Origin: Candidatus Scatovivens sp.
GTDB lineage: Bacteria; Bacillota; Clostridia; TANB77; CAG-508
Length of the DNA: 64,000 nt
Assembly: GCA_045646345.1 (NCBI GenBank)
Contig: JAZRKN010000014.1
Location: forward strand, 64,001 to 128,000
Direction of reading: 5' to 3'
Shown: positions 19,773-22,942 of the stretch, one piece after another
How the letters are laid out: each line of letters begins with the position of its first letter
How positions within the stretch are numbered: the stretch's first letter is position 1
Translations under genes and position numbers: made by a program
The notes under the pieces: model-generated
The model's database searches: none
Told to the model about the DNA's origin: nothing
What the model saw: the letters and a program-made list of their open reading frames with translations, nothing else

Positions 19773-22748
19773 ATGGGATTTGATTTGTTGCCACATAACC
19801 AAAAAGCATATGATAATGTAAAAACAATATTCAGAACACAAAATAGAGCTGCAGTAATACATCCAACAGGAACTGGAAAAGGGCGTATTTCACGTAAATT
19901 AATTGAAGATAATCAAGAAAAGAAAATACTATATATGTCTCCATCATTAGCTATTAACAATAGTTTAGAAAAAAGTTTAAAAAAACATGGAGTGGAAACA
20001 GAAAATCTAGAAATTTTTACTTATCAAAAATTAACAAGAATGACAAAAGAAGAAATTGAAGAATTAAAGTTTGATTATATAATTTTAGATGAATTTCACC
20101 ATTGTGGAGCTAAGGAATGGGGAATGCTTGTAAACAGATTGCTAAATGTTAATGGTGAGGCAAAAATTTTAGGATTGTCTGCGACACCTCTTAGATATAC
20201 TGCAAGTGGCATAAGAGATATGACAGAAGAATTATTTGGGAATGTAATAGCTTCGGAAATGTCTTTAGAAGCAGCTGTTGCTGGGGGAATATTAAATGAA
20301 CCTACATATGTAACAAGTATATATGCATATGAAGGAATTATAGAGGATTTAGAAAAGCAAGTAGATGAATTTGAAGAAAAAGGTAATAAGAAGAGAAGCA
20401 AAAGAAAAGAAATTGCCAAACAAGAATTAGAAAGATTGAAAAAATATGTACATGAAGCAATAACATCTCTTCCAGAGGTTTTAGAAAAATCAATACCAAA
20501 TAAAAGTGGAAAATATATTGTATTTTGTTCAAGTATTGAAGATATGAAAGCCAAAATTGAAGCTGCACCAGAATTGTTTAAAAAAGTAAATCCAAACATT
20601 GAAATTAGACAAGTTTCTAGTGATGAAAATGATGTAGCAAAAAATGAAAAAACCTTACAAAATTTTGAAGAAGATAATAATCCTGAAACTTTAAAATTAT
20701 TATTTTGTGTAAATATGTTAAATGAAGGTTATCACCTAAAAGATTTAGATGGTGGTATTATGATGAGATCAACTGCATCTCCAACTTTATATACACAACA
20801 ATTTGGAAGAATAGTTTCAGCTGGTAAAAAAGGTGATACTGTTTTAATAGATTTAGTAAATAATATAGATGCAATAGAAAATATTGTAAGATTTTATGAG
20901 AACTTATCTAGAGAAAGAAAAAATAAAGAAACAGGAAGTAAAGTTAGAAAATTCACTATGACACAAGAACTAAGAAGCATAGGTGAAGTTGTAAGAAAGA
21001 TAGAAAGTTTAGTATCAAGAAGAGCTAATAATATAGAAGTTAACTTTATGAAAAGACTAGGAATTTCTTTTGAAGATGCCAAAAAAATAATTGAAAGTGG
21101 AAAAGATGATTTAATAAGAGGTAGAGCAAACAATTATGATGGAATGTATGCATCAGAAGAAAAAGAGTCTTTAGAATTATTTTATGAAATGAGAAAACTA
21201 AGATTAAAGATGACATCTGAAATTGAAGTTGGAACAGAATCATATAACAAAAAATTAAATGAATATAAAAGAAAAAGAGATGAAGTAATAATTAAAAATA
21301 TTGGGCTTGTAAAATGGATGTTAAAAAATATTCCAGAATTACAAAAGTTTAATTATGATTCAGAAGAAGACAAAGTACAAACTGCTTTGAAATATTTAAT
21401 AGAAGCAGCAGATACATATAATCCTCAACTAAGAACAAGAGAAAACAAATCATTAAGATTTGATGAATATTTGCTAGTTTTTATACAATCAGGAATGACT
21501 CAAGAAGAAAGAGATATTGAATATGAGAAATATACCGAAGATATATTATCAGTCAAAGCAGAGCTTGAAGAAATATATGGAAAAGGTAAAGTAACAGATT
21601 CTCATATAGCGCAAGAAATGTTAACAAGAACAGTTGAAGCAATTGATAAAAAGCAAAGTAATTTTTTTAAATCTCATCCTTTTTATGAACTTTTAAGAAA
21701 AGAAGTACTAGCTTATAGAGAAGAGTTTGCTAAAGTAGAAATATATTGGGAAAAAAGAAAAGGTAAAGGTGAGATAAGGGAGAATGCTAAAGATATAAGA
21801 AAAAGAATTGCAATGGAGATAGATGATAATGACCCGTATTTATTAAAAATGACAATATTTCAAATAAAAAATGTATTTAGAAAATTGGAAGAATTGGAAA
21901 GCTATGATGCTATTGTTGATTTTGATATAAATGATTATTTTCTAGAAGATTCAGAAATAATTCAACCAGTAGGAGATAGTTATATATCAGAAGGCGTTTA
22001 TGTTGAAAAAAAAGAACCATATACTCAAGAACCACAAGCAGAAGAAGAATTTTTGAAGATTATGGAAAGAAGTGAGAATAGCTTTTTAAAAGTAGATTTA
22101 GAAGCTGTACTTAACACACTTAACGAAAAAGAACGAACAATAATAAAATTAAGATATGATTTAGGATTAAAAATAGAAGATGTTGAAAATGGACATAAAT
22201 TAATTAAAGATTATGGATCTTTGCATAAAGCAGAAAGACGTTTAAGACATCCAAGTAGAGCGAAAATGTTAGCACCATATCTTGGCACAGAGAGAACAAT
22301 ATTGGCTGCAAGAGGAAGAGTTAGAAAAAAAGCAACAACTGTAAATTATGAAAATAATAATAGTTTTGATGCTGCTTCAGGAGATTTAGAAAGTGTTAAA
22401 TTATCAGAAATTATTGAATCAGATGAATTATTTAAACACTTAAATGAAGCTGGATTGTGGTGTTTAAAGGACTTGGTTAGTATGACAGAAGAACAATTAA
22501 AATCTGAATTAGATTGTACAGATAAAATGGTTATAGAAATAAAATCTTTATTAGGGGCATATGGAGTAGAATTAAGTGATGAAGAGCAAGAGGATGTTAT
22601 AGCAGCTGACTTGACAGGAAGAAATCAAAGTTCAAAAGCAGAAACATTAAAAGCACTTATGCAAAAGAAAAAATCTCAAGAAGAAGAAATAGAACAACTA
22701 GTGGGAACAAAAAATAAAAGACAAAATTCAGGAGAAAGAGAGGATTAA
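19773..22748 (+). CDS. Fusion protein: SF2 (DEAD/ResIII-like) helicase + sigma70-like regions 2 and 4 + RNAP alpha-CTD-like domain
   Basis: PTGTGK, LDEFHH, LSATP, NMLNEGYH, QQFGRI; NIGLVKW..D..Q..LIEAADTYNP..F; VLNTLNEKERTIIKLRY..RLRHPSR; LNEAGLWCLKDLVSMTEEQL..EIKSLL; start after AGGAG. Confidence 0.8.
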   Translation: MGFDLLPHNQKAYDNVKTIFRTQNRAAVIHPTGTGKGRISRKLIEDNQEKKILYMSPSLAINNSLEKSLKKHGVETENLEIFTYQKLTRMTKEEIEELKFDYIILDEFHHCGAKEWGMLVNRLLNVNGEAKILGLSATPLRYTASGIRDMTEELFGNVIASEMSLEAAVAGGILNEPTYVTSIYAYEGIIEDLEKQVDEFEEKGNKKRSKRKEIAKQELERLKKYVHEAITSLPEVLEKSIPNKSGKYIVFCSSIEDMKAKIEAAPELFKKVNPNIEIRQVSSDENDVAKNEKTLQNFEEDNNPETLKLLFCVNMLNEGYHLKDLDGGIMMRSTASPTLYTQQFGRIVSAGKKGDTVLIDLVNNIDAIENIVRFYENLSRERKNKETGSKVRKFTMTQELRSIGEVVRKIESLVSRRANNIEVNFMKRLGISFEDAKKIIESGKDDLIRGRANNYDGMYASEEKESLELFYEMRKLRLKMTSEIEVGTESYNKKLNEYKRKRDEVIIKNIGLVKWMLKNIPELQKFNYDSEEDKVQTALKYLIEAADTYNPQLRTRENKSLRFDEYLLVFIQSGMTQEERDIEYEKYTEDILSVKAELEEIYGKGKVTDSHIAQEMLTRTVEAIDKKQSNFFKSHPFYELLRKEVLAYREEFAKVEIYWEKRKGKGEIRENAKDIRKRIAMEIDDNDPYLLKMTIFQIKNVFRKLEELESYDAIVDFDINDYFLEDSEIIQPVGDSYISEGVYVEKKEPYTQEPQAEEEFLKIMERSENSFLKVDLEAVLNTLNEKERTIIKLRYDLGLKIEDVENGHKLIKDYGSLHKAERRLRHPSRAKMLAPYLGTERTILAARGRVRKKATTVNYENNNSFDAASGDLESVKLSEIIESDELFKHLNEAGLWCLKDLVSMTEEQLKSELDCTDKMVIEIKSLLGAYGVELSDEEQEDVIAADLTGRNQSSKAETLKALMQKKKSQEEEIEQLVGTKNKRQNSGERED

Positions 22749-22750
22749 TT

Positions 22751-22942
22751 ATGAAATCAAAAATAAATAATTTTGAAAATATTAATACAATCGATCAATT
22801 TTTAAATAAATTAGAAAATAATCCTGAATTAGTAGATAATTTATCTGAAAAAAGATTAGATATTTTAATTGGTTATTATACAAATTTAACTCAAAAAAAT
22901 GAAGAAAGAATTAGTGAATTGAAAAGAAAAAATGCAAATTAA
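22751..22942 (+). CDS. Small hypothetical protein, coupled to the helicase fusion
   Basis: Starts 2 nt after the upstream stop with GAGG RBS; terminator follows. Confidence 0.65.
   Translation: MKSKINNFENINTIDQFLNKLENNPELVDNLSEKRLDILIGYYTNLTQKNEERISELKRKNAN

Follow-up and report, generated by a model that had tools for sequence, protein, structure and literature searches.

A helicase fused to a degenerate sigma70-family factor and an alpha-CTD-like domain in an uncultured clostridial genome

The 64,000-nucleotide (nt) stretch of contig JAZRKN010000014.1 analysed here (hereafter the window) comes from Candidatus Scatovivens sp. (assembly GCA_045646345.1), a genome of 1.79 Mb with about 28% GC. 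On its forward strand, one open reading frame (ORF) of 991 amino acids (aa) (19773..22748) joins a ResIII-type superfamily 2 (SF2) helicase core to a whole, degenerate sigma70-family factor, and to an acidic domain resembling the carboxy-terminal domain of the RNA polymerase (RNAP) alpha subunit (alpha-CTD). A 63-aa gene follows (22751..22942, +). We tentatively propose, at somewhat less than even confidence, that the protein is a decoy sigma that would tether an ATP-driven motor to the RNAP core and would be restrained by its small partner.

A single gene encodes the fusion

The frame is uninterrupted from an in-frame ATG at 19752 to 22748 (998 aa), and residue numbers throughout follow this longer count. 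The start at 19773, which has AGGAG 7 nt upstream and is shared by all seven aligned homologues, is likely to be the start of the ORF. Seven full-length homologues have 57–91% identity, and an eighth, P0011, comes from a 50% library; all eight are colinear with the fusion, down to about 31% identity over aa 455–953. The 90% cluster of the protein comprises 11 members, each on a contig of a separate assembly. Moreover, contigs from three DNA runs (three studies; one run may be the source sample) span 19805–21506, 20561–21784, 21155–22768 and 21755–22816, bridging both the helicase-to-sigma region 2 joint and the sigma-to-alpha-CTD joint, and none of the indels listed for them lies within the fusion ORF. 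Because of this cluster and the contigs that cross the domain joints, the fusion is not an assembly artefact. The DNA runs that carry the gene are from animal gut and manure; no RNA run was among those listed, run X20 being probably DNA. A first-pass annotation of the window had described one ORF with helicase, sigma and alpha-CTD blocks, a description that Pfam and profile–profile comparison (hhalign P 94–98% for the sigma and alpha-CTD parts) bear out; its worry that the fusion might be unique to this assembly and lack read support is answered by the homologues and the bridging contigs.

The middle of the protein is a whole, degenerate sigma factor

In Pfam searches with the single fusion sequence, Sigma70_r4 fell below the cut-off (E 0.006–0.009) and Sigma70_r2 was not found. 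Windows of the eight-member family alignment were compared by hhalign with profiles built without that family, and this comparison matched region 2 (P 94%, E 1e-7) and region 4 (P 98%, E 7e-13); windows outside the matched block gave P of at most 2% and reversed controls less than 1%. A phmmer search of the Protein Data Bank (PDB) returned SigA region 4 (E 6e-4). Genome G002 encodes a stand-alone sigma of 403 aa in which Pfam regions 2, 3 and 4 are all over the cut-off, and the fused family is colinear with it over aa 393–843 (hhalign P 97%, E 3e-11). This colinear alignment shows that the fusion contains a whole, although degenerate, sigma70-family factor with regions 1.2, 2, 3, 3.2 and 4. 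Within it, a region 1.2-like helix that aligns with RpoD and the stand-alone paralogues (aa 465–485; 21144..21206, +) precedes a region 2.1–2.4-like domain (aa 506–585; 21267..21506, +). Alignment then places region 3, with a variable insertion of about 75 aa, and region 3.2, with the motif YI.[DE]GVY (aa 586–775; 21507..22076, +), ahead of a region 4-like domain that also draws the PDB SigA matches (aa 776–845; 22077..22286, +). The region 2 and region 4 blocks noticed at first pass are thus confirmed and extended by regions 1.2, 3 and 3.2. In the Atlas, aa 455–850 led to sigma-named clusters at 0.93 with low shared counts, which serves as a lead only.

Comparison with the genome's own RpoD shows what has been kept and what has been lost. 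NLRLV is replaced by NIGLV, DLIQEG by DKVQTA and STYATWWIRQ by DEYLLVFIQS, such that region 2 retains the N, D and Q of the first two motifs, the tryptophan dyad (W-dyad) of region 2.3 becomes VF, and the RQ of region 2.4 becomes QS, QT or QA. In region 4, region 4.1 and RLRHPSR are kept; the 4.2 segment falls about 6 residues short of its RpoD counterpart and contains no TRERIRQIE, in agreement with the first-pass remark that the recognition helix was unrecognisable. According to PMC4593229, the W-dyad is universal in housekeeping (group 1) sigmas, and the Y394 position is Y or F across the sigma family; the fusion protein has Ile at that position. These comparisons place the protein in the sigma70 family by homology, with regions 2 and 4 in order, but not in group 1.

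An acidic alpha-CTD-like domain lacks the basic patch

Downstream of the sigma part, an alpha-CTD-like domain occupies aa 878–942 (22383..22577, +). RNA_pol_A_CTD scored below the Pfam cut-off on the single sequence (E 0.07), and profile–profile comparison confirmed the block that the first-pass annotation had called alpha-CTD-like (hhalign P 96%, E 2e-9, 58 columns). Two viral alpha-CTD proteins were among the fold matches, with weak E values. The domain is strongly acidic, with a net charge of −7 to −14 in six of six members (−7 in the window protein), compared with −1 to −4 in RpoA and four wider-family copies (−1 for the CTD of the genome's own RpoA). The motifs SVRSYNC and NLGKKS have been lost. 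The basic DNA-binding patch of alpha-CTD (R265, N268, G296 and K298) is not retained. Replacement by the fusion of a lost RpoA CTD or a lost RpoD was considered and rejected, because the genome keeps both an intact RpoD and a CTD-bearing RpoA.

Parts of this kind seem to recur in the source genome (G000). Helicase-free proteins with sigma4-like modules, alpha-CTD modules or both are encoded at C15:28190–29224, C3:26174–27517 and C15:164298–164609. In the window, a 131-aa orphan (26324–26719, +), also present at locus L021, lies just upstream of two tRNA genes (26868–27051), and the last 38 of its residues are similar to the RpoA CTD (34% identity; pairwise E 2e-5; local hidden Markov model (HMM) E 0.02).

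The helicase core and its unusual motifs

The amino-terminal part (aa 8–385; 19773..20906, +) is a ResIII-type SF2 helicase core. The first-pass call of a complete core held up: ResIII, Helicase_C and DEAD are over the Pfam cut-off, and motifs I, II, III and VI are represented by HPTGTGKG, DEFH, SAT and QQFGRIVS. Walker A reads GTGKG, not GxGK[S/T], and the residue after the lysine is G in all eight fused-family members and S, M or F in relatives. The last Arg of motif VI is missing in 12 of 12 aligned family members. XPB and RadD were the nearest solved helicase folds in a Foldseek search with a poor full-length model (predicted local distance difference test (pLDDT) 50); XPB shares no more than the fold (about 16% identity), and the scores of RadD-type repair helicases are nearly as high. 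In a quick tree, the helicase nests in a 56-row clade (Shimodaira–Hasegawa-like approximate likelihood ratio test (SH-aLRT) 98) in which sigma4 and alpha-CTD tails are common. No helicase-associated (HA) domain (PF03457) was found by Pfam in the fusion protein, nor is one among the 25 families listed for the eight members.

Related arrangements occur at other loci. At L113:9153–10010 and L125:8913–9974, an alpha-CTD pair forms its own ORF after a shortened helicase and before the partner gene, as split genes or frameshifts. A helicase with an alpha-CTD, identical in length and type of tail to that of L031, is at L116:230–3148 on a 3.6-kb contig from a genome titled uncultured Bacilli, which may reflect mis-binning or transfer.

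Region 2 and the alpha-CTD are conserved

Among six divergent members, mean pair identity is highest in the helicase (78%), followed by region 2 (70%), the alpha-CTD (54%) and the 4.2 segment (37%), which makes region 2 the best-kept block after the helicase. The ratio of non-synonymous to synonymous substitution rates (dN/dS) between the window gene and L021, from this one close pair with small counts, is 0.19 for the helicase, 0.15 for sigma regions 1.2–2.4, 0.08 for the alpha-CTD and 0.59 for sigma4. These values indicate purifying selection on region 2 and the alpha-CTD. They also bear on whether the protein is an accidental fusion that is decaying without function. Its rarity and the sigma4 ratio would fit decay, as would one cluster in which three or four of the 15 members listed are truncated or split. 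The full-length colinear homologues at such low identity and the ratios of 0.08–0.19 in the key blocks stand against it, so that decay appears largely refuted by conservation and very improbable.

A possible decoy sigma

Residues that would read DNA have been lost in all three borrowed modules: the W-dyad and other residues in regions 2.3–2.4, the 4.2 helix in region 4 and the basic patch in the alpha-CTD. Because these surfaces are lost while region 2, by which sigmas normally bind core, is held constant, we favour the decoy reading. In the mechanism proposed, region 2, and perhaps region 4, would dock the fusion on the RNAP core, ATP hydrolysis by the helicase would drive movement or stripping of polymerase on DNA and not promoter selection, and the 63-aa partner would restrain or chaperone the protein; the outcome would be that transcription is inhibited or reset. 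We infer core binding, ATPase or translocase activity, inhibition or resetting of transcription and restraint by the partner from sequence features. The decoy reading is also favoured by the pairing of a helicase with the same sigma family both within one protein and across adjacent genes (see below), and by a Foldseek search with an AlphaFold2 model of aa 455–953 (pLDDT 71), in which all 50 listed PDB matches are primary-type (group 1 or 2) sigma chains.

Several observations weigh against this proposal. E. coli sigma70 contacts core at L384, V387, L402, D403, Q406 and E407 in regions 2.1–2.2; in the fusion, two of these six positions are unchanged, two carry conservative substitutions, and the remaining two differ (L402 is E; E407 is T, A or I), as they do in the paralogues. 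The R385 position is G in the fusion. The first-pass idea of a decoy sigma or RNAP-binding remodeller fits the lost DNA-reading residues and the conserved region 2, and is weakened by the two changed contacts. With the glycine in Walker A and the motif VI without its last Arg, ATPase activity is not assured. P0011, the most divergent of the fused proteins, retains a helix–turn–helix of full length, though a different one. The fold search that returned the primary-type sigma chains is partly circular, as the model's alignment included five stand-alone sigmas. Functional alternative sigmas, too, lack a conserved W-dyad, according to PMC4593229. Finally, wider-family helicases bear interchangeable tails (HA repeats, NUMOD1, sigma4 and alpha-CTD), which fits DNA binding rather than RNAP binding.

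This last point leads to an explanation that we consider unlikely but worth weighing, in which the sigma and alpha-CTD folds are borrowed tails that bind nucleic acid or protein, can be exchanged for the HA repeats of related helicases, and steer the motor to a substrate other than RNAP. Among 46 scanned relatives of 150 listed, the tails over the Pfam cut-off vary (19 alpha-CTD, 14 sigma4, 13 both); none has Sigma70_r2, and several have HA repeats instead, which a reference title in PMC12191111 reports as DNA-binding. The stand-alone sigma4-like and alpha-CTD proteins in the same genome would also suit such exchange. What it leaves unexplained is that the DNA-contact residues are the very ones lost, that the alpha-CTD is strongly acidic, and that a whole sigma is retained with region 2 as its most conserved part.

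A stand-alone sigma paralogue and a separate-gene form

A stand-alone RpoD-like sigma paralogue was found in six genomes, three of 75 in the genus and three more among 301 genomes of the family. Together, the fused and stand-alone sigmas form one 12-row group apart from RpoD and from the genome's alternative sigmas (SH-aLRT 100, with long branches flagged). They have in common a W in region 2.1, EDK.Q.A and YI.[DE]GVY, the last being absent in L103 and L104. By this grouping, the fusion's sigma derives from the rare stand-alone RpoD-like paralogue family.

In three of the six genomes (G017, G093 and G366), the sigma paralogue clusters with a helicase of a different sub-clade. The ResIII helicase gene ends 11 nt before the sigma paralogue in G017 and 1 nt before it in G093, and in G366 the gene order is helicase, a 183-aa gene, sigma. 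Because G017 and G093 are closely related (their sigmas are 92% identical over the N-terminal half), the number of separate arrangements is about two. No helicase lies within 16–18 kb of the sigma paralogue in G002 and G345, and in G353 the paralogue begins at the contig start. In the quick tree, the neighbouring-gene helicases group together in a clade separate from the 56-row one. On the simplest reading of that tree, helicases and this sigma family have come together on two occasions, once as a fusion and once as neighbouring genes. Five other helicase-bearing genomes gave no match to the sigma paralogue, and the two helicases inspected there were of a repeat-tailed type.

The W-dyad is absent in six of six stand-alone paralogues, and an RpoD-like 4.2 helix is kept in L202, L103 and L104, the three that cluster with helicases. 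These features raise the idea of an alternative sigma with weak melting residues whose promoters are opened with ATP by the helicase, fused or adjacent, and the XPB fold nearest the helicase part (low-confidence model) agrees with it. For the window protein we think this improbable: the 4.2 helix is gone, Ile occupies the Y394 position, and among the stand-alone paralogues two have no helicase within the distance given above and a third sits at a contig start. Motor-assisted initiation is more plausible for the separate-gene form, because its three helicase-linked sigmas keep the RpoD-like 4.2 helix. The decoy reading remains the one that we prefer for the fusion.

An unnamed gene of 183–188 aa adjoins the sigma paralogue, before or after it, in four of the six genomes (L103:10579–10740, L104:5765–6331, L110:9426–9980 and L202:2988–3539). 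The L202 copy has no Pfam, NCBIfam or PADLOC match, and the gene is a candidate anti-sigma factor or adaptor.

The small partner belongs with the helicase

The 63-aa ORF (22751..22942, +) starts 2 nt past the fusion stop and has no Pfam family; nothing was found for it in the Atlas. It belongs to an unnamed family of helical proteins whose genes come after these helicases, and no other member is as short. Judged from the printed sequences, 15 of 16 loci have a related small helical gene downstream of the helicase or of an alpha-CTD gene split off from it, one being truncated at the end of a contig and one lying about 900 nt off. Members have diverged widely (10–31% identity to the window copy), and most have an amphipathic motif at the N terminus, which is missing from the 63-aa copy. 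The genome also encodes a second ResIII-type helicase, distant from the first, of 1176 aa and with a different tail (G000 C17:55144–59265), and a 184-aa partner-family gene follows it. Because this second helicase of the genome also has a partner, the partner belongs to the helicase family and not to the sigma. The coupled small gene noted at first pass is thus a family-wide companion of these helicases and is not specific to the sigma fusion. Elsewhere in the genome, at C1:43859–45585, C7:22824–27619, C3:56034–57497 and C15:211243–212366, an orphan gene is followed by a small gene with an amphipathic end of the 'IF.KI..FIK.IF' type, possibly a general cargo-plus-partner arrangement.

The fusion protein ends in a predicted C-terminal helix and a -GERED tail (22578..22748, +), the last codons of which overlap the ribosome-binding site (RBS) of the partner. 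The -GERED ending pointed out in the first-pass annotation has a simpler explanation: the conserved -ERED end needs no secretion signal, because the E-D codons (GAG GAT) supply the partner's RBS. A shared C-terminal export signal was tried and rejected, as charge bias dominated the results of the tail HMM (23 matches compared with 13 in the control; 1296 ORFs). Tails of the -[DEG]R type also end 30 ORFs that are 100 aa or longer, and neither count was taken as evidence.

Patchy spread at unrelated sites

The fused form occurs in one of 301 genomes of the order, that of the window, and a genome scan with fused-family patterns returned no other genome. The broader helicase family is found in 10 of 75 genomes of the genus (E 1e-30) and 34 of 401 of the family (E 1e-90); at E 1e-150, the window's genome is the only one among 399 of the class. 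In the 50% library, two of 150 listed matches align end to end, and the closest named records are from uncultured Clostridia. None of 50,697 phage records matched the sigma/alpha-CTD half. No plasmid record spans as much as 80% of the query, and the 15 matches listed reach the helicase end only. A search for shorter stand-alone relatives of aa 450–860 gave one 73-aa fragment only.

Across the 16 loci printed, the two-gene unit sits at unrelated chromosomal sites, mostly between housekeeping genes; in the window, it lies between a diaminopimelate (DAP) dehydrogenase gene and a PIN-domain gene. The latter, a PIN_12 gene (23121–24128, +) directly downstream of the partner and in the same place in L021, was not seen beside the other family loci printed. 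Promoter-like sites numbered 25, compared with 24.9 in shuffles.

Phage ADP-ribosylases modify an Arg of the alpha-CTD. One may ask whether the sigma and alpha-CTD copies are an integrated bait that catches RNAP-targeting phage proteins, whereupon the partner would be released and a toxic helicase switched on. The patchy spread of both the helicase and the fused form, the unrelated sites, the PIN-domain gene that follows and the presence of sigma-like MzaA and alpha-CTD-bearing PglW models among defence proteins would accord with this. We nevertheless judge a bait doubtful, as the cassette has no nuclease or other effector and the printed loci are mostly flanked by housekeeping genes, PADLOC gave partial helicase matches only, region 2 and the alpha-CTD are under purifying selection, and the alpha-CTD lacks the Arg that the phage ADP-ribosylases target. 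The defence role raised in the first-pass annotation thus found no direct support. The only feature that would suit its effector idea is a type IV secretion system (T4SS)-like locus 47–53 kb away on the contig (G000 C14:133589–140168), with seven tandem T4SS-type pilin genes and a VirB4-like ATPase; PrgI had no match there, and nothing links the fusion protein to the locus. For the decoy that we propose, action after export into a neighbouring bacterium is possible.

Comparison with known systems

By its core, the fusion is a ResIII/HA-type helicase, and by homology a member of the sigma70 family. The ResIII-type 'Helicase associated domain protein' family (PF04851, PF00271 and PF03457; for example, on Ruminococcus albus plasmids) has the same core (36–41% identity, DEFHHCG and QQxGRxxS) and carries the HA domain where the fusion has a whole sigma and an alpha-CTD tail; no functional study of that family was found in the open literature. 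RpoD/SigA is colinear through regions 1.2, 2, 3 and 4, and SigA is the best PDB match by sequence and fold, but the fusion lacks the W-dyad, the RQ of region 2.4 and the 4.2 helix, and has the large region 3 insertion, the helicase and the alpha-CTD. Type III restriction Res and phosphorothioate (PT)-restriction helicases share the ResIII match, with TIGR04095 weak (54 bits compared with a cut-off of 600), and the fusion locus has neither a nuclease domain nor a neighbouring methyltransferase gene, as type III restriction–modification would need. MzaA, of the Mza anti-phage system, and PglW are defence proteins with sigma70-like or alpha-CTD-like modules. Scores against the MzaA models are highest for the stand-alone paralogues and lie far below the cut-off; the window protein has no MzaA or PglW match, and no other genes of these systems were seen next to it.

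RapA, Mfd and HelD are ATP motors that dock on and remodel RNAP through domains of their own and not through a sigma. They share with the fusion the remodelling activity proposed here, and none has an NCBIfam match in it at E 0.001. XPB/Ssl2 of TFIIH, and sigma54 with its AAA+ activators, open promoters with ATP and without a sigma70-family factor. The likeness lies in the ATP-assisted promoter opening considered above and, for XPB, in the fold nearest to the helicase part. In the open literature, neither the architecture nor the family was found described; the present analysis adds the variant with a whole sigma, the family from which that sigma came, and the form with separate genes.

To our knowledge, known RNAP remodellers use no sigma scaffold, and sigma70-family factors are taught as melting promoters without ATP, the ATP route being known to us for sigma54 and Pol II and not for sigma70. 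A helicase repeatedly paired with one odd sigma family offers a ready test of both rules, and both forms are small enough to be reconstituted with a Bacillus or clostridial core enzyme. We entertain, as a speculation that is unlikely to hold, that a sigma70-family factor here brings its own XPB-like ATP motor, which would open promoters when the two are neighbours and would seize RNAP blind to promoters when they are fused, possibly after export, and that the pairing arose twice in one uncultured gut family. If the fusion is an inhibitor, it would represent a new way to stop bacterial transcription and a clue to how small-genome uncultured gut Clostridia handle phages or neighbours.

Other genes in the window

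Two further features of the window were recorded. A gene with an HNH endonuclease domain lies at 29986–30654 (−). At 32143–37893 (+), a 1916-aa orphan with no Pfam match over the cut-off ends in -HEDR, as does the BadF/BadG ATPase-family gene upstream of it.

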